64,000 nt of DNA from Candidatus Bipolaricaulota bacterium. GTDB lineage: Bacteria > Bipolaricaulota > Bipolaricaulia > UBA7950 > UBA9294. A model generated the notes under the pieces. It did no database searches, had not been told where the DNA came from, and was given only the letters and a program-made list of their open reading frames with translations. The stretch lies in assembly GCA_023132915.1 (NCBI GenBank), contig JAGLXM010000075.1:1165-65164 (forward strand). Reading direction: 5' to 3'. Positions within the stretch are counted from its first letter, which is position 1; every line of letters begins with the position of its first letter. The position numbers and the translations under genes are program-made. Of the stretch, positions 32,091 through 63,760 are shown piece after piece.

Positions 32091-32592
<502 letters not shown>

Positions 32593-34424
32593 CTGGCCCG
32601 ACTTTGACAACGCCAAACGAGAAGTGCTGTTCCGAAGGGCAATACAGGGATCGTCAAGGTCGCGTGGCACTACGCTTTGGGTCAGCGAGCGTCTCAGTCG
32701 AGTCGTTCGATCCGTCGAGGAGGGACGATCTTCAGCGCCTGGAACGCTGCCATGCTGACAGCGGGGATCTCGTCGCGCATTCGGTAGCGGCTTCCGTTGC
32801 CGTCATCTAGCACCACCGCCCGCACCCGCGACAGTCCCTCCATTAGCTCGACGAACGACCCGTCGAACGATCGCTCCGCCAACCGCTTCTTGAGGATCTG
32901 CCGTAGGATGAACGCGAGGAAGCAAACGGTGATGTGCCCACGGACCCGTTGCGCGGTCCAGTGGTAGATCGGACGAAGCTCCAGCGGTGTCTTCAGCATC
33001 CGGGACGCTTCCTCCACCTGCCACAGCCTCTTGTACGCCACCGCCGCCTCGGCAGCCGTCAGTCGGGCGTCGTTGGTCCGTAGCACCCACTTCCCGTCGT
33101 AGCGAGCATCCGCTTCGATCTTCCGTCGATCGAGTGATGCTCCACCGGCCTGGGTCCGTACGTACCGCCGTGCCGCTCCTCGCAGCAACCCCTTCACCGA
33201 TCCCGTCTCCAGGCGCTTGCTGAGCATCTCAACGATCGCTTCCCGTTCCCGTCGGTCCGCCTCCACCGCCTCGGGGTTGCGACAGACGATGTAGCGGTCC
33301 TCGACATCGGGAAGGTCGACCTCTTTCACCTCGAGGTTGTCGGCGACGGTGTGGTAGCGTCCCGAGTGGGACAGGACCTCCTGGGCGACCTTGTCTCGTC
33401 GCAGCTTCGTCGCCACCAGGTACGGCATCCCAACTTCACGCAACGCTTGCAGGTTCGCCTCGGTCACCATCCCACGATCACAGCAGAGCATCACTCGTTT
33501 CACTCCGAGCGTCTCTCGTACCGCCTCAACCGCCAGACGAAACGCTGAGGGGTCGGCGGTGTTCCCCGGGAAGATCACGTGGGCCACCGGAAGTCCTTTC
33601 CTCGTCATTACCACCCCCAGGCCGACTTGCCGTCGATCCCCGCGGTGATCTCGCGAGTAGCCAAACGCTGCCAACTCCTCGGGGTGGGTCCCTTCCACGT
33701 ACGTCGAAGTGGTGTCGAAGTACAACAGATCGGTGTCGGTGAACAGATCCCGATGACGGGCGAACCATCCCGCCTCGACGTCATTCTTCACCTCGGCGAG
33801 GCGATCGAGTGAGCGGTACAGATCGTGCAGTTCGAGATCGTCAAACGGCGCACCGTAGACGTCGTCGCGGAAGCGCAGCGCAGCGCACTTCGATCCCGGA
33901 TCGACCAGTCGATGCAGCACCATCAAGTAGACAGCATCCGCCTGTCGTTGCGTAAGTCCGGCGTCCTTGATGATCGGAGCGAACGTCTCCATCCACAAGC
34001 GCCCCCACACCAGCGAAGCTCCCCAGATCCGTGTCTCCACTCTGGATCGATCGCTGAGGAGGATCGATTCGAGCTCGGCGTAGCGGTTCGCAGTCTCTAC
34101 CAGCGAACCGAGACCCTTGCGCAGCCGTGGATCGTCAGTCCGTCCCAGTGTGGCCAGCACCCGTTGGCGGGTCTTTCCATCGACGCGGCGGTTCTCGACG
34201 AGTTGGAGGTAGGTGGTAACGGTGCCATCCTGGTTGCGTCGCTTCTTCTCGCGGATGAACATGACACCTCATGATACCACACATTCATCAGGCAGAGAAG
34301 GGGACATCCATCACTAACGTGGCACCACAAAGCACCTCTCAAACGACCCTCGACACTACCGAAACCCAGTTCCCTTGGCATCGAGGTATCCAGAAAGCGC
34401 CGATTCTTGTCAAAGTCGGGCCAG
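32593..34424 (-). mobile_element. IS1634-family insertion sequence with perfect 18-bp terminal inverted repeats
   Basis: CTGGCCCGACTTTGACAA at 32593-32610 and its exact reverse complement TTGTCAAAGTCGGGCCAG at 34407-34424. Single 522-aa transposase inside. Visibly GC-richer than its surroundings. No matching flanking direct repeat seen. Confidence 0.85.
32694..34262 (-). CDS. IS1634-family (IS4-like DDE) transposase
   Basis: 522 aa. N-terminus MFIREKKRRNQDGTVTTYLQLVENRRVDGKTRQRVLATLGR is typical of IS1634 transposases. Confidence 0.9.
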   Translation of the reverse strand: MFIREKKRRNQDGTVTTYLQLVENRRVDGKTRQRVLATLGRTDDPRLRKGLGSLVETANRYAELESILLSDRSRVETRIWGASLVWGRLWMETFAPIIKDAGLTQRQADAVYLMVLHRLVDPGSKCAALRFRDDVYGAPFDDLELHDLYRSLDRLAEVKNDVEAGWFARHRDLFTDTDLLYFDTTSTYVEGTHPEELAAFGYSRDHRGDRRQVGLGVVMTRKGLPVAHVIFPGNTADPSAFRLAVEAVRETLGVKRVMLCCDRGMVTEANLQALREVGMPYLVATKLRRDKVAQEVLSHSGRYHTVADNLEVKEVDLPDVEDRYIVCRNPEAVEADRREREAIVEMLSKRLETGSVKGLLRGAARRYVRTQAGGASLDRRKIEADARYDGKWVLRTNDARLTAAEAAVAYKRLWQVEEASRMLKTPLELRPIYHWTAQRVRGHITVCFLAFILRQILKKRLAERSFDGSFVELMEGLSRVRAVVLDDGNGSRYRMRDEIPAVSMAAFQALKIVPPRRIERLD

Positions 34425-56826: not shown

Positions 56827-58041
56827 GTGAATATTCCACTAGCTAGACCGGATATCGCCAAGGAGGAGATCGAGGCGGTCGTTGCTGTCCTCAGAACGCC
56901 CCACCTTGCTCTCGGGCCTAAGCTAAAGGAGTTCGAGGATGCGATCGCTGAATATTCTGGCGTTCGTTATGTCGTGGCCGTGAACAGTGGCACGAGTGCC
57001 CTGCACCTTATCATTCGCGCACTGGGGATCGGTGCCGGTGATGAGGTGATCACTACCCCGTTCAGCTTTATCTCCTCGTCCAATTGCATCCTTTTTGAAA
57101 GGGCAAAGCCGGTCTTTGTCGATATCGAGCCGAAGACTCTCAACATCGATCCCGAACGGATCGAGGAGGCGATCACACCAAAGACCAAGGCGATCCTGGC
57201 CGTTGATGTGTTTGGCCATCCGGCCGACTGGCCGGCGCTGGAGCAACTGGCAGAGAGACACAACGTGTTGTTGGTCGAGGATTCCGCGGAAGCGCTTGGG
57301 TCTAAGTTGGACGGGAAGCGTTGTGGCTCGTTCGGTCGGGCCGGAATCTTCGGCTTTTACCCCAATAAGCAGATCACGACCGGCGAAGGCGGTATCATTG
57401 TTACCGACGATGCGGAGCTCGCGGCTCTGTGTCGATCCATGGCCAACCAGGGCCGCGGAGATGGAGACGCCTGGCTAAGCCACGTTCGTTTGGGCTACAA
57501 CTACCGCATGGACGAGATGTCGGCCGCATTGGGACTGGCGCAGCTTTCCCGGATTGAGGAGATCGTTGCCGCCCGCGCCCAGGTGGCTGTGTGGTACGCG
57601 GAGGCGTTGGAGCGGGTTGACGGAGTTAAGGCGCCCTTTGTGGCGCCGGACGTAACGATGAGTTGGTTTGTGTACGTAGTTCGGCTCGATGAGGGATTCA
57701 CTCGCGAGGATCGAGATCGGATCTTAAAAGGCCTCCGCGATGCGGGCATCGAGTGTCGCAATTACTTCCCCCCAATTCATTTGCAGCCGTTCTATCGAGA
57801 AGCCTTGGGGACTAAGGAAGGGGACTTTCCGATCACCGAATCCGTAGCCGCACGGACGATCGCTTTGCCATTCTACAATAAACTCACTAAGGATGAAGTA
57901 AGCTACGTCGTGGACAATCTAGCCGATATACTGAAATGTTACCACTTGGGGGATGTAGCAAATCTCAAATCGCTACTACACCCCCCGAGGGCGCAGAGAT
58001 CGCAGAGAACGCGGAATCCGCAAAGAAGTCGTCAAATCTAG
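56827..58041 (+). CDS. DegT/DnrJ/EryC1/StrS-family sugar aminotransferase (PglE-like) with a repeat-derived C-terminal tail
   Basis: 404 aa, GTG start. ..NSGTSALHL.., ..FGFYPNKQITTGEGGIIV.. . The last ~30 aa (..GDVANLKSLLHPPRAQRSQRTRNPQRSRQI) are encoded by palindromic/low-complexity DNA. Confidence 0.85.
   Translation: MNIPLARPDIAKEEIEAVVAVLRTPHLALGPKLKEFEDAIAEYSGVRYVVAVNSGTSALHLIIRALGIGAGDEVITTPFSFISSSNCILFERAKPVFVDIEPKTLNIDPERIEEAITPKTKAILAVDVFGHPADWPALEQLAERHNVLLVEDSAEALGSKLDGKRCGSFGRAGIFGFYPNKQITTGEGGIIVTDDAELAALCRSMANQGRGDGDAWLSHVRLGYNYRMDEMSAALGLAQLSRIEEIVAARAQVAVWYAEALERVDGVKAPFVAPDVTMSWFVYVVRLDEGFTREDRDRILKGLRDAGIECRNYFPPIHLQPFYREALGTKEGDFPITESVAARTIALPFYNKLTKDEVSYVVDNLADILKCYHLGDVANLKSLLHPPRAQRSQRTRNPQRSRQI
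57945..57992. repeat. 48-nt palindromic element (single unit) in the DegT 3' end
   Basis: cttgggggatgtagcaaatctcaaatcgctactacaccccccgagggc. It shares both ends (CTTGGGGG.TGTAG.AA and ACTACACCCCCCGAGGGC) with the 90-nt element at 62746-62835. Confidence 0.75.
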
Positions 58042-58057: not shown

Positions 58058-58282
58058 TTGAGTAGGCTGGAGAACAAGGTGGTGGTCATTGTGCCTAAGG
58101 TTGAAGTCAATCTGGACCAATTAGCAAAGGCTTTGGAGGAGTTGTCCCCCGGTGAGCTTGAAACTCCGGAGATTCGGTTCAACCCCGAATTGGGAGAGAA
58201 ACTGAAGGACCGGTGGGCCAAGGCCAAGGAGGAACTTGCGAAGGGGAGAACCCTATCGAAGAGGGACTTGCTTGCGCAGTGA
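58058..58282 (+). CDS. Small hypothetical protein upstream of the DUF4258/DUF2283 pair
   Basis: 74-aa ORF with a non-ATG start, charged helical C-terminus (..KLKDRWAKAKEELAKGRTLSKRDLL). No family recognised. Confidence 0.3.
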   Translation: MSRLENKVVVIVPKVEVNLDQLAKALEELSPGELETPEIRFNPELGEKLKDRWAKAKEELAKGRTLSKRDLLAQ

Positions 58283-58377
58283 TAGTTCATACAAGACACA
58301 AAAATGGTGAAAATGCAAAGCTTACCCGGGAGGACGACAGAGATCACGGAGATAATGCTGAGGAGGCAACGCAACGC

Positions 58378-58653
58378 ATGAAGCCGGGGCCGCTTCGGAA
58401 ATTTTGCATCAAGGATCACGCTCGTTTTCAGATGAAACGGCGCCAGATTTCCGAAGAGCAGGTGCGTCAGGTACTGACAGCTCCCCAGCAGATTATTGAG
58501 AAGGAAGGCAGCCGTTATATCTATCAATCTAAGCTCTTCTTGCCAAACTCAGGTAAAGAGCGCCTCTTTCGTGTTGTGGTAGACACTAGGCACGAGCCGG
58601 TTGAAGTTGTTACCGTGTATCGCACGAGTAAAATAGCCAAGTATTGGAGGTAA
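58378..58653 (+). CDS. DUF4258-like toxin-type small protein
   Basis: 91 aa from ATG 58378 (RBS gaggagg). ..IKDHARFQMKRRQISEEQVRQVL..RLFRVVVDTRHEPVEVVTVYRTSK.. . Confidence 0.65.
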   Translation: MKPGPLRKFCIKDHARFQMKRRQISEEQVRQVLTAPQQIIEKEGSRYIYQSKLFLPNSGKERLFRVVVDTRHEPVEVVTVYRTSKIAKYWR

Positions 58654-58655
58654 AT

Positions 58656-58853
58656 ATGAAGCTTGTCTACGATCGGGATTTAGACATTCTGACGGTAATT
58701 CTCAAGGAGATGTCCGTGGAGGAGAGCGACGAGGTAAAAGAAGGCATCATTCTGGATTATGATGCCCACGGTAACCTTGTCGCGATGGAGATCCTAGACG
58801 CATCCCGACTCATTGCTCAGCCCGCGGGCGTTGAGTTTCAGTTGGCTAAATAG
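58656..58853 (+). CDS. DUF2283-like small protein (partner of DUF4258)
   Basis: 65 aa. MKLVYDRDLDILTVILKE..EGIILDYDAHGNLVAMEILDAS.. . Confidence 0.7.
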   Translation: MKLVYDRDLDILTVILKEMSVEESDEVKEGIILDYDAHGNLVAMEILDASRLIAQPAGVEFQLAK

Positions 58854-58920
58854 CCTTCAGCTAGCTTAGAGCAGTTCTACCGCTTTTCGGAGGTTGGAGA
58901 ACAGAAGAGGAACCCAACCT

Positions 58921-59037
58921 TGTGTCGGCACAATCGTCTTACCCTTCTACAACAGTCTGATCAAGAAGGAGAGCGAATATGTTGTGGAGAGTCTGGCCGG
59001 CATAGTAAAATCAATCGGCCAAAGGAGGTGGAGATGA
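58921..59037 (+). pseudogene. 3' remnant (about 35 codons) of an ancestral DegT-type aminotransferase
   Basis: ..TIVLPFYNSLIKKESEYVVESLAGIVKSIG.. parallels ..TIALPFYNKLTKDEVSYVVDNLADILK of 56827..58041. Its TGA (59035-59037) overlaps the hicB ATG 59034 (ATGA). Confidence 0.6.
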
Positions 59038-59267
59038 CAAGAAGGTTCAAGATCATTGTCCAAAGGAGCGAGGAGGGCTACGTAGCTTATCCTCTGGGGT
59101 TAAAGGGCGTTGTGGTGGGCGATGGAGATACATTCGAAGAAGCCCTGGAAAACGTCAAGTCGGCAATTAGCTTTCATATTGCGACGTTCAGAGACGAAGT
59201 GTTAGAAGAACTCGCCGAGCCTGAGAACATCTACGTTACGGAGACAGAAGTCGTTTTAGATGTCTAA
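59034..59267 (+). CDS. hicB: HicB-family antitoxin (UPF0150-like)
   Basis: 77 aa. ..FKIIVQRSEEGYVAYPLGLKGVVVGDGDTFEEALENVKSAISFHI.. . RBS aaaggaggtg. Confidence 0.7.
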   Translation: MTRRFKIIVQRSEEGYVAYPLGLKGVVVGDGDTFEEALENVKSAISFHIATFRDEVLEELAEPENIYVTETEVVLDV

Positions 59268-59499
59268 GTTTTCCCGAGATGCGCCTAAGAGGAAGGTCCT
59301 TAAAGCTTTCAAGGAGCTGAGGTTTGAGATCGTTAGAGAGGCTGACCACATTGCCCTCAGGCGACATAACCCTGATGGGTCCACGACGCCGATGACCATC
59401 CCCAACCATCGAACCTATAAAAGCAGCACCCTGCGGGAGATCTTGACTCAAGGCAGAATTCCCAGGGATGACTTTCTAACGGCTTACTACAAATCATGA
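59260..59499 (+). CDS. hicA: HicA-family toxin (YcfA-like)
   Basis: 79 aa. ..KRKVLKAFKELRFEIVREADHIALRRHN..MTIPNHRTYKSSTLREILTQGRIPRDDF. Overlaps hicB by 8 nt and the capD-like start by ATGA. Confidence 0.7.
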   Translation: MSKFSRDAPKRKVLKAFKELRFEIVREADHIALRRHNPDGSTTPMTIPNHRTYKSSTLREILTQGRIPRDDFLTAYYKS

Positions 59500-61497: not shown

Positions 61498-61670
61498 AAA
61501 AACACTGTCAGGAGTCGGGAGTCCAGAGTCGAGTGCCGAGATTCAATGTTCACTAGATTTTCAAGCTAGATAGAAGGATTTGAACTAGGGAAACTGGACG
61601 TGGTAAGATAAGTTTCCAGGGATGGTAGAGATTAGGATAGAATATCGTGAATCGGCGGAGGTGGGAAAGT

Positions 61671-61889
61671 ATGTCTGATCAGGTAGATCTTGGAACACTC
61701 CTTAAGCGGGTTGATTCCTTGGAAGGGGAGATAGGGCGGCTTAAGCGCGACTTGCTCCGCAGTTTAGTAGTCCAGCCACGGGGAAAGAAGGTGAAATCCT
61801 TGTTTGGTAGTGTACAGGGCGGTGATGTGACTGAAGAGATGATTGAGGAAGCGAAGCGGACCCTGTTTCGGCCCCTGGAAGACTTGTAG
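61671..61889 (+). CDS. Small coiled-coil protein, putative VapB-type antitoxin
   Basis: 72 aa from ATG 61671 (RBS ggaggtggg). Ends 5 nt before the PIN gene. Confidence 0.5.
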   Translation: MSDQVDLGTLLKRVDSLEGEIGRLKRDLLRSLVVQPRGKKVKSLFGSVQGGDVTEEMIEEAKRTLFRPLEDL

Positions 61890-61894
61890 ATCGT

Positions 61895-62293
61895 ATGGAA
61901 GAGCCGACGCTTTATGTTCTCGATACCCATGTGCTCATCTGGTACTTCATCGGGAGTAACCGTCTGCGGCAGAAGCTCAAAGAACGCATCGATAAAGCTC
62001 GCCGACGAGGCGGTCGCCTGTTGGTTCCGACCATCGTGTTATCCGAAGCGCTGGATGTCGCTGAAAAGGGTCGAGTAGAACTGGATTTTGCTGGGATGTA
62101 TAGGTTGATTCGGGAGGAACCGGAGTTTGAGATTGTCGGCTTTGGGCCTGACGTTTTTGAGGAAACGATGCGAATCAGGGAGATTCAAGAGATTCACGAG
62201 CGGATCATCGTGGCTACAGCCAGGTTTTATGAAGCAGGGATGCTAACAAAAGATCGAATCATCCGTGACTCAGGAGAGGTTGAAACTCTATGA
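61895..62293 (+). CDS. vapC: PIN-domain ribonuclease toxin (VapC-like)
   Basis: 132 aa. ..LYVLDTHVLIWYF.., ..PTIVLSEAL.., ..IHERIIVATA.. acidic PIN residues. Confidence 0.8.
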   Translation: MEEPTLYVLDTHVLIWYFIGSNRLRQKLKERIDKARRRGGRLLVPTIVLSEALDVAEKGRVELDFAGMYRLIREEPEFEIVGFGPDVFEETMRIREIQEIHERIIVATARFYEAGMLTKDRIIRDSGEVETL

Positions 62294-62583
62294 TCATGTA
62301 CTGTTTTAACTCTATAAGCTCTGCATAGCAGCGCTGAATCGGCGGGCTCTTGAGTCTTCCCATGTCTGTGGGGTCATGCCTTGGCACTGACCGTTGATCG
62401 CTGAATGCTGATGGCGAAAGCCAAAAGCTTATTGCTTGAAAAGGAAAGGCCATGATCGTTGCCCCGTTTTTTGTGTCCTTGCTTGTGAGCTTCTTTTGCG
62501 TTCCGATTCTGATCACCCGGTTAAAACGAGCGGGGATCTCCGGAAGCGACATCCATAAGTCTAGCTAGCCGCGTGTCTCCGAG

Positions 62584-63501
62584 ATGGGCGGGCTGGCGAT
62601 CGTAGTGGGGTTCGGTTCCGGGATTTTGCTTGCGGTCGCGTTGGTAAGCTTCTTTCATGTTTTCCCTTCGGTAAACCTAGTCGTCTTGCTGGCGGTGCTC
62701 TCTACCGTCCTGTTGGCTGGGCTGATCGGGATAGTGGATGACTTGCTTGGGGGGTGTAGTAAGTCGAATCCAGTTACTACACCCGCCTCGGAGAGTGTAG
62801 TAAGTTCCAAACCGACTACTACACCCCCCGAGGGCATGCGGCAGTGGATGAAGGCACTGTTGCCGGTGTTCGCGGCGTTACCGTTGATGGCGGTGCGGGC
62901 GGGGCATACGTTCATGAAGATTCCGTTTGTAGGGACGCTCAACTTCTGGATCTTTTACCCCTTGGTGTTGGTTCCCGTGGGGGTGACTGTCGTAGTAAAC
63001 GCGGTGAACATGCTCGCTGGGTTCAACGGCGTGGAGGTGGGACTGGGAATCGTCGCAATAGGAAGCCTATCGATCATCGCCGCCATCCTGCATGAGACCA
63101 CCGCGCTGATCCTTCTTCTCTCCGGCCTGGGCGCGCTTCTTGGCATTATCTACTTCAATTGGTATCCGGCGAGGATCCTGGTGGGAGACGTGGGAACGCT
63201 TTCGATTGGGGCCATCATCGCCACCGCGGTGATCGTGGGTAACTTCGAGACAGCGGGTGTGATCGTGATCATCCCATATGCGATCGATTTTCTGTTCAAA
63301 GCAGTGCACCGCTTCCCTACGAGTTTCGGCGAGCTCCGTGAGGATGGGAAACTGCATTGTCCTGCGGAAGGGCCTGTGGGGTTGGGGCAGTTCATCATGA
63401 AGGTAACGCGTGGAATTCACGAGCGGACGCTAGTCGTTACGTTGATGGGGATTGAGGCGATTTTCGGGCTAGTAGCTATTGCGTTGTATGTGTGGAGGTG
63501 A
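62584..63501 (+). CDS. Glycosyltransferase family 4 polyprenyl-phosphate HexNAc-1-P transferase (MraY/WecA/WbpL family). The first TM segment is separated by an in-frame TAG, and it carries a 90-nt in-frame palindromic insert.
   Basis: ..GIVDDLLG.., ..NAVNMLAGFNGVE.., ..LVGDVGTLSIGA.. . The in-frame upstream segment 62452-62565 (MIVAPFFVSLLVSFFCVPILITRLKRAGISGSDIHKSS) ends at TAG 62566-62568. Confidence 0.8.
   Translation: MGGLAIVVGFGSGILLAVALVSFFHVFPSVNLVVLLAVLSTVLLAGLIGIVDDLLGGCSKSNPVTTPASESVVSSKPTTTPPEGMRQWMKALLPVFAALPLMAVRAGHTFMKIPFVGTLNFWIFYPLVLVPVGVTVVVNAVNMLAGFNGVEVGLGIVAIGSLSIIAAILHETTALILLLSGLGALLGIIYFNWYPARILVGDVGTLSIGAIIATAVIVGNFETAGVIVIIPYAIDFLFKAVHRFPTSFGELREDGKLHCPAEGPVGLGQFIMKVTRGIHERTLVVTLMGIEAIFGLVAIALYVWR
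62746..62835. repeat. 90-nt double palindromic element inserted in frame in the GT4 transferase CDS
   Basis: Hairpin 1: gggtgtagtaa (62752-62762) with ttactacaccc (62774-62784), a perfect 11-bp stem. Hairpin 2: gtgtagtaagt (62795-62805) with actactacac (62815-62824). Encodes GGCSKSNPVTTPASESVVSSKPTTTPPEG. Confidence 0.85.
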
Positions 63502-63760
63502 GGAATAGCTGTCAGCAGTCAGCGATCAGCAGTCAGCATCTAGCTAAAGGCTGATGGCTGAAAGCTGGTACACGGTGATGAGTGAGGAGGGGCTGGGTTC
63601 ATAGGGTTGATAGAGCCCATTGTGTTCGTTGAGTTAGAAAATAGTCAATCCTGTGGGGAATGGCCTGGAAGCAGTGATGGGTAATGGGTGATGAGGCTCA
63701 GGGGAGGGATTGAAGGATTACGGATCAAGGTCAGTCTCTAGCCTGTAGATTCTGGACTGA
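63501..63760. repeat. Composite low-complexity region (heptamer-periodic modules) downstream of the locus
   Basis: gtcagca gtcagcga tcagca gtcagca; aaaggctgatggctgaaagctgg; gggttcatagggttgatagagcccattgtgttcgttgagtt; gtgatgggtaatgggtgatgagg. Same word families as 240-660, in the opposite orientation. Confidence 0.65.

Follow-up and report, generated by a model that had tools for sequence, protein, structure and literature searches.

Rickettsia palindromic elements (RPEs) are dispersed palindromic repeats that can occur in frame within unrelated housekeeping genes, where they contribute a peptide to a surface loop while the function of the host protein is apparently preserved. [quoted passage not shown] Here we describe a comparable insertion in a stretch of 64,000 nucleotides from Candidatus Bipolaricaulota bacterium (assembly GCA_023132915.1, contig JAGLXM010000075.1, positions 1,165 to 65,164 of the forward strand), referred to as the window and numbered from its first letter. 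The element consists of two palindromic units and lies in a gene for a membrane glycosyl-1-phosphate transferase (GT4), directly past the catalytic aspartate pair. A first, sequence-only reading had described it as a 90-nt block of two tandem hairpins and compared it with RPEs. Our results show that the block is a lineage-specific insertion of 84 nt, which is absent from equally close relatives, and that its units belong to a dispersed repeat family which has also entered other targets. The block probably represents two copies of a non-autonomous, selfish palindrome specific to one lineage of Bipolaricaulota, similar to repetitive extragenic palindromes (REPs) and MITEs, whose in-frame copies survive in permissive loops. 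Palindromic repeats of Bipolaricaulota were not the subject of any paper retrieved in a literature search.

Insertion in the GT4 gene

The region of the window past the DD motif reads CTT GGGGGGTGTAGTA AGTCGAATCCAGT TACTACACCCGCC TC GGAGAGTGTAGTA AGTTCCAAACCGAC TACTACACCCCCC GAGGGC ATG, and the sequence is thus present at this position as the sequence-only reading had described it. In an alignment of 26 sequences, most homologs (321-323 aa) read VDDLL-GMRQW with nothing between these two parts. Six homolog clusters with 88-91% identity (BLASTP) carry the additional residues GGCSKSNPVTTPPE (+14 aa), and the window gene has gained 28 aa. Both gains are located precisely between VDDLL and GMRQW and are confined to a shallow clade; an equivalent loop was not found in unrelated taxa. 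In the DNA, the sequence of the empty sites (loci L003, L052-L054, and L179) is CTN YTR GGG ATG. Relative to them the insertion comprises 28 codons and starts two codons past the DD motif. The 30 codons proposed previously are too many, because they include two native codons, one for Leu (62746-62748) and one for Gly. G-runs at both junctions leave the register of the insertion uncertain by up to ~4 nt.

The two tandem units are located at 62749-62835. The first unit (v1) contains the perfect 11-bp stem GGGTGTAGTAA/TTACTACACCC that had been claimed, and it is found alone (+42 nt) in a paralog and in orthologs of the window gene. In the left arm of the second unit (v2), GGAGAGTGTAGTA, the run GGAGAG has decayed from GGGGGG, the form present in L140 and L143. 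Inverted-repeat detection indicates that the four arms of the double insert are all mutually complementary or compatible; from v1 to v2, the spacing is 41 nt for the left arms and 42 nt for the right arms. The 106-nt region folds with -49.6 kcal/mol compared to -30.8 +/- 3.6 kcal/mol for shuffled sequences (z = -5.2; none of 200 shuffles was as good). However, the minimum-energy fold is one nested long hairpin, in which outer arms pair with outer and inner arms with inner ones, and not the two side-by-side hairpins envisaged at first. A scan of the 64-kb window with a covariance model (CM) trained on 92 members of the repeat family retrieved only three units, namely v1, v2, and a copy in a DegT gene (Table 1).

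Table 1. Window coordinates of the insertion, its host gene, and the related copy in the DegT gene.
Feature	Coordinates	Strand	Basis
GT4 host gene, PF00953 glycosyl-1-phosphate transferase (DPAGT1/WecA/MraY superfamily)	62452..63501	+	Pfam, translation, homolog alignments
Premature TAG, GT4 codon 39	62566..62568	+	DNA alignment; CAG (Gln) in three relative sequences (two contigs)
DD motif, GAT GAC	62737..62742	+	D96/D97 invariant in alignments of 26 and 56 homologs
Net insertion, 84 nt (28 codons)	62749..62832	+	Window vs. empty site L003, single-unit L001, protein alignment
Hairpin unit 1 (v1), loop AGTCGAATCCAGT	62749..62787	+	CM match, 33.9 bits at 62752-62784
Hairpin unit 2 (v2), loop AGTTCCAAACCGAC	62790..62829	+	CM match, 59.9 bits at 62786-62833
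DegT copy, third family member in the window (core 57948-57986)	57944..57990	+	CM match, 51.9 bits
DegT/DnrJ/EryC1 aminotransferase open reading frame	56827..58041	+	PF01041 covers residues 9-365 of 404

The assignment of the host gene to the MraY/WecA family is borne out by its match to PF00953 (E = 5e-30, 105 bits against a cut-off of 27). Its best sequence match in the PDB is human DPAGT1 (6BW5), and the closest solved relatives are DPAGT1 and bacterial MraY. Besides the DD pair, further stretches are invariant in the 26-sequence alignment (N183-G193 and more), and the PF00953 motif region is conserved with DD and an NxxNxxDGxDGL-type motif. The true start of the gene is the ATG at 62452. 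Because of the in-frame TAG at codon 39, a mechanical list of open reading frames (ORFs) gives only 62584-63501, and the NCBI annotation likewise starts at 62584, with a 305-aa 'hypothetical protein'. A protein with 100% identity is listed at NCBI as locus KAU37_03060. The TAG may be a strain-specific nonsense change or a sequencing or base error, and the window copy of GT4 may be dead or truncated. A recoded TAG or pyrrolysine codon was rejected, since TAG terminates 13 of the 48 long ORFs in the window, where it is an ordinary stop codon, and relatives have CAG. Directly past the GT4 stop codon (63503-63560), short tandem-like repeats (CAGCAGTCAGC / GCTGATGGCTGAAAGCTGG) were noted.

Double inserts are compatible with an open GT4 gene, because the v1+v2 ORF is intact and full length in L152 and L166, which derive from other samples. 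The same +84 nt is present in the window, L140, L143, and L166 and, by translation, in L152, while alleles with +42 nt include L001 paralog 1 and many others. In a neighbor-joining tree, filled and empty alleles are interleaved inside the shallow clade, and the protein P0008 (94% identical) lacks the insert although it is equally close. In L001, L143, and L175, the v1 and v1+v2 paralogs share a contig and are separated by only a few kb. In L001, the two paralogs are separated by ~5 kb; one carries v1. The second is orthologous to the window gene, as it shares the upstream pair of a small ORF and a PIN ORF; it carries v2 only and is frameshifted by +43 nt (L001:15564-16112). Other damaged alleles are L127 (+41 nt) and the divergent GT4 copy in L085, which has the insert plus a 4-nt deletion downstream. 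A second hot spot for insertion is located directly after the DxHK motif of GT4 homologs (L052:681-1721, L053:281-1276, and L054:3001-4098). The inserts at this position are encoded by different hairpins, whose arms are GGTGTAGTAG.. or CCCTGTGGAATA/TATTCCAGAGGG. L152 combines an insert at this site with the double insert, that is, three units in one intact GT4 ORF.

These alleles suggest a history in which a single v1 unit would have landed in the cytoplasmic loop directly past the catalytic DD motif, v2 would have joined it in one paralog to give the double form of the window, and slippage between the direct-repeat arms could delete 41 or 42 nt again. Slippage between the left arms would yield exactly the +43, v2-only, frameshifted allele of L001.

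The insert as a predicted protein loop

The protein with a single unit (P0005) was modeled using AlphaFold2 with 56 homologs, which resulted in a mean predicted local distance difference test (pLDDT) score of 82 and a predicted template modeling score of 0.85. The sole stretch with pLDDT below 50 comprises residues 102-113, inside the insert (residues 100-113), which is placed between the helix bearing D96/D97 and the next helix. By homology, we take the insert to lie between D115/D116 and K125 of DPAGT1 in the residue numbering of 6BW5; the HMMER alignment to 6BW5 is disturbed by the insert. The insert is therefore predicted to be a disordered, tolerated loop beside the active site. Copies that enter permissive surface loops would survive as a Gly/Ser/Thr/Pro-rich linker, because a 42-nt copy preserves the reading frame and the arms are free of stop codons in two of three frames.

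A dispersed repeat family

The unit of the family is GC-rich, 42-48 nt long, and consists of arms of 13-16 bp, (CTY)GGGGGGTGYAGTA ... TACTACACCCCCC(GAG), for example GGGGGGTGTAGTA / TACTACACCCCCC, which enclose a variable loop of 12-15 nt. While the arms are nearly invariant, the loops fall into many variants, several of which are present at unrelated sites; the variant AGTCCCTCTTCGGC, for instance, was found in an OsmC-like gene, a group II intron, and a FolC-like gene. A search of 185,579 species-representative genomes with the exact 17-mer TACTACACCCCCCGAGG retrieved 48 stretches, 43 of which have the partner arm and form full hairpins. The element is thus not restricted to the two genes of the window, and almost all of its hairpins belong to Bipolaricaulota: 39 of the 43 are in five metagenome-assembled genomes (MAGs), four labeled Bipolaricaulota and one labeled 'uncultured bacterium'. 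Four of these MAGs have 6-12 exact matches each, namely at least 9-12 in each of three fragmentary MAGs and 6 in the fourth, and the fifth has one. The remaining five matches, which fall in unrelated phyla and lack a partner arm, appear fortuitous.

In metagenomes, at least 120 loci matched, and 108 of 120 contain hairpins. A tolerant search detected 193 hairpins in ~97 flank clusters within 1.09 Mb of Bipolaricaulota contigs. Most copies lie outside validated ORFs, no gene calling having been done, and often form mosaic arrays together with other short repeats, in which they alternate in orientation and are spaced by 80-130 nt. Many are situated at contig ends, as expected for repeats. Intergenic-looking mosaics, again without gene calling, are found in L007, L012, L024, L027, L035, L041, L046, and L049, where the hairpin is combined with inverted pairs of CACCACGAAGGACACGAAGAGCAC and a CGGTAAAATGCTTGAAACTAGG module in an arrangement resembling bacterial interspersed mosaic elements (BIMEs).

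Rfam contains no family for the hairpin, as judged by searches of the window at gathering thresholds and of seven hairpin-cluster loci at E<=1. Analysis of pairing and covariation revealed nothing above shuffled controls (90.8% of cells pair compared to 91.6% after shuffling), and changes in the arms are mostly one-sided. A structured functional RNA was rejected, since neither an Rfam match nor a compensatory signal above the controls was obtained; the absent covariation fits a young repeat that is conserved in sequence.

Other insertion sites and the target

The sequence-only reading had pointed to a single-unit version at the 3' end of the DegT aminotransferase gene. This copy is real, as it matches the CM and shares with the GT4 insert the 20-mer CTACTACACCCCCCGAGGGC, which occurs exactly twice in the window (none expected), but it is not in frame. 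Compared with the empty sites of L056, L057, and L058, it adds 41 nt to the 3' extension of the gene, and the resulting frameshift gives rise to the tail HLGDVANLKSLLHPPRAQRSQRTRNPQRSRQI, so that the C-terminus is altered from ...CYRGGAEIAENAESAKKSS... to ...CYHLGDVANLKSLLHPPRAQRSQ.... The last ~32 codons of the ORF come from the hairpin copy and from downstream sequence read out of frame; most homologs have 370-375 aa. The stretch past the hairpin (57993-58040; GCAGAGATCGCAGAGAACGCGGAATCCGCAAAGAAG...) is conserved in relatives, in which a different frame is used and yields a C-terminal extension (AEIAENAESAKKSS..). Because most DegT homologs end ~30 residues earlier, this stretch may represent a repeat that was inserted at an earlier time.

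Among the ~97 contexts, the validated internal coding insertions are three in frame (GT4, OsmC, and RACo) and one that shifts the frame. The OsmC-like gene (L033) has gained 14 aa directly before its GGC motif, and the C-terminal domain of RACo (L117/L136) also contains an in-frame copy; both genes are validated by Pfam. In the FolC-like gene (L060:5163-5202), which was identified by motif only, the frame is shifted across the hairpin, whose C-run is one short of the usual six. The arms are read in a frame that depends on the host, yielding GGCSK in GT4 and OsmC and SGGVV in RACo. Fusions at gene ends affect the C-terminus of a PDDEXK_3 protein and the N-terminal region of RNase HII.

Group II introns of family RF02005 also carry the hairpin. 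Their terminal stem loop holds 46 nt compared to 1 in the Rfam model, which we read as a net gain of 42 nt, and the hairpin as a native part of the intron was rejected on these grounds. The intron-borne copies (L134:8780-9050, L063:2334-2605, and L094:1939-2245) belong to a flank cluster of 15 sites that was multiplied with the intron. Further copies are located just upstream of ORFs for group II intron reverse transcriptases (L124 and L062).

Each insertion adds 41-43 nt, mostly 42: GT4 in two lineages gained 42 nt and DegT 41 nt relative to their empty sites, and we read the OsmC and intron sites as +42 nt and the FolC-like site as +41 nt. The target is always CTY|GGG(G), in coding sequence often a Leu-Gly codon pair. 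One end of the unit is nearly always GAG, the perfect partner of CTC, and the other is usually CTT or CCT. The orientation of the loop relative to this asymmetry goes both ways (35 vs. 19 of 81). The loop as a guide to the target was rejected, since identical loops are found at unrelated targets.

Mobility and alternative explanations

A non-autonomous selfish palindrome would have spread by transposition-like copying with an enzyme provided in trans, and the insert would be neutral or slightly deleterious for its host gene rather than useful. Several observations weigh against this reading. All loci were retrieved via one exact 17-mer, so that the diversity of the family and its genic fraction are biased estimates. 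A duplication of GGG(G)/GGGG fits GT4 (L081/L162), OsmC, and the intron, but no consistent target-site duplication was found, as GGGG is absent at most other, mainly intergenic, copies. A candidate enzyme is not apparent either. The 137 ORFs located up to 2 kb from the copies were compared with Pfam; among the 25 families listed, of 176 with matches, none matched more than two ORFs. Two ORFs matched DDE_Tnp_1. Isolated arms bracketing an insertion sequence (IS) or transposase, as expected for a parent IS, were not detected in 0.3 Mb. A query with an IS200 TnpA sequence gave no match in the first 51 loci. In the larger set of 120 metagenome loci it detected six IS200-type Y1 transposase genes, each in a different locus and at a distance of 0.2-3 kb from a copy, and two of them are confirmed by Pfam; they are not flanked by the hairpins, and their own end hairpins are unrelated. 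The PF01797 genes are L153:3755-4174 (-) and L099:4482-4937 (-), the former ~200 nt from a hairpin and beside an apparent tRNA gene recognized by eye. Finally, three findings at GT4 itself count against a freely moving unit. The v1 unit is seen in 21 copies, all of them at one GT4 codon. It occurs in two GT4 lineages with ~69% protein identity, in which the 44-nt insert is identical at 44 of 44 positions; the second, P0042-like lineage (L085/L172) carries this identical v1, while its close relative L179 is empty. Among the seven intact main-lineage GT4 alleles compared, truncated ones being excluded, the insert has 1 segregating site in 44 and the flanks have 88 in 301 (Fisher p = 2.5e-5), a diversity ~25-fold lower. 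This low diversity points either to a recent spread into one and the same site, through homing or conversion tracts of very short length, or to constraint at the nucleotide level.

These last findings are what a site-bound cassette would predict, which homes to the DDLL|G codon or is copied between paralogs or xenologs by short gene conversion, while other family members move otherwise. The proximity of v1 and v1+v2 paralogs within a few kb is also in line with it. However, the flanks of the two lineages differ up to the insert edges, and conversion tracts would have to equal the insert exactly. Moreover, other loop variants are present at unrelated sites, which means that the family as a whole transposes, and a homing enzyme is not evident. 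We consider such a cassette possible but doubtful.

A speculative proposal, which we hold to be unlikely, is that the hairpin is a minimal mobile element complementary to its target. Its invariant 3' end (...CCCCCCGAG) would pair with nicked CTY-GGGG, including a T.G wobble, and the target end would serve as primer for copying the hairpin from a single strand of RNA or DNA. Candidate enzymes are the reverse transcriptase of group II introns, in which the hairpin is present, and a Y1 transposase that acts in trans. If true, target-primed copying would explain the constant GAG at one flank and the variable CTY at the other, the gain of 42 nt rather than the full 48-nt palindrome, the preference for Leu-Gly, and the presence of an identical unit at one GT4 codon in two lineages.

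It is improbable that the insert is a selected feature, that is, a Ser/Thr/Pro-rich regulatory or linker loop or an mRNA hairpin tuning translation or membrane insertion. In its favor, alleles whose flanks diverge at ~15% of nucleotides have kept the insert within an intact ORF, all its positions including the loop are nearly invariant, and the second loop after DxHK also accepts hairpin-encoded inserts, up to the three units of L152. On the other hand, dozens of unrelated sites outside validated ORFs contain the repeat, as do an intron loop and the ends of genes, and its insertion shifts the frame of several genes (DegT, FolC-like, L001 paralog 2, and L127). Equally close relatives such as P0008 are empty, the peptide is predicted to be disordered, and the frame of the arms changes with the host.

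Removal or bypass of the insert at the RNA or protein level, as a mini-intron, an intein-like element, or by translational bypassing, is very improbable. The hairpin is strong and family members also reside within group II introns, but 42 nt is far below the size of any self-splicing element, and no Rfam match and no intein or splicing motifs were found. The coexistence of in-frame survivors and frameshift casualties is expected if the insert is translated. An assembly or chimera artifact of metagenome binning is hardly credible: although assemblies tend to break at repeats and contigs end at many of the copies, identical junctions were recovered from independent NCBI, ENA, and many JGI assemblies with allelic variation in the flanks.

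Read as a selfish palindrome, the insert belongs to a family of repeats not described before, from a phylum that is deep-branching and uncultured, and exemplifies a known kind of selfish DNA rather than a new kind of system. It would be an extreme case of in-frame selfish DNA, since a membrane enzyme of an essential type has accepted a 42-nt unit two codons from its catalytic DD, and a single intact gene can contain as many as three units. In practice, the repeat breaks assemblies and yields spurious C-terminal extensions and truncated 'hypothetical' ORFs in the annotation of MAGs, and it is usable as a presence/absence marker at the strain level. The alleles with zero, one, and two units constitute a natural experiment on the insertion tolerance of the cytoplasmic loop of DPAGT1/WecA-type enzymes.

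Other features of the window

An ALIL frameshift pseudoknot (RF01497, 75.9 bits) is located at 32492-32608 (-), beside a 522-aa ORF (32694-34262, -) in a GC-rich island (0.625); together they presumably form an IS3-family insertion sequence. Small ORF pairs resembling toxin-antitoxin modules are found among polysaccharide genes at 58213-59499 and 61647-62293, the latter including a PIN-like ORF (61895-62293) and its 80-aa partner. In the syntenic loci L056 and L057, DUF4258 and DUF2283 genes are annotated downstream of DegT, and the window ORFs may be their homologs.

Comparison with known systems

The analogy with RPEs drawn in the sequence-only reading holds for behavior and not for membership. 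In both cases, the in-frame insertion of a dispersed palindrome adds a loop peptide while the function of the gene is apparently preserved. In contrast, RPEs are ~100-150 bp long, AT-rich, and found in Rickettsia only, whereas the present family is 42-48 nt long, GC-rich, and found in Bipolaricaulota. RPEs encode a conserved peptide and nearly half of them lie in ORFs; here the loop is variable, the frame depends on the host, and only ~3-4 of the ~97 contexts are validated sites internal to coding sequence. The likeness is thus one of behavior, and no sequence relationship is expected.

The new family shares with MITEs such as Correia, ERIC, Nezha, and Chunjie a composition mostly of terminal inverted repeats, the non-autonomous state, presence/absence polymorphism, and occasional in-frame fusions (PMC10969869). 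However, its unit is far smaller, GC-rich instead of AT-rich, and inconsistent in target duplication, and a parent IS with matching inverted repeats was not found in the 0.3 Mb searched. IS200/IS605-type single-strand elements and their palindrome-associated derivatives resemble it in having a hairpin as hallmark and one fixed flank (CTY GGGG) without a classical duplication, and Y1 genes are present in the same populations. Yet the end hairpins of these Y1 elements are unrelated in sequence, and nothing connects the two in function.

The features of REP, BIME, and REPIN sequences are largely present: a short (20-50 nt), GC-rich, imperfect palindrome, with many copies per genome that are clustered and mostly outside validated ORFs, a GTAG/CTAC motif, and no clear target duplication. 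Differences are that no gene for a REP-associated tyrosine transposase (RAYT) or Y1 transposase flanked by the hairpins was found in the incomplete genomes analyzed, although Y1 genes are near some copies and a RAYT may still be involved, that GTAG lies within the stem and not 5' of it, and that copies also occur in coding sequence. Taken together, these comparisons suggest by analogy that the family is functionally the RPE phenomenon in miniature and structurally closest to REP/BIME palindromes.

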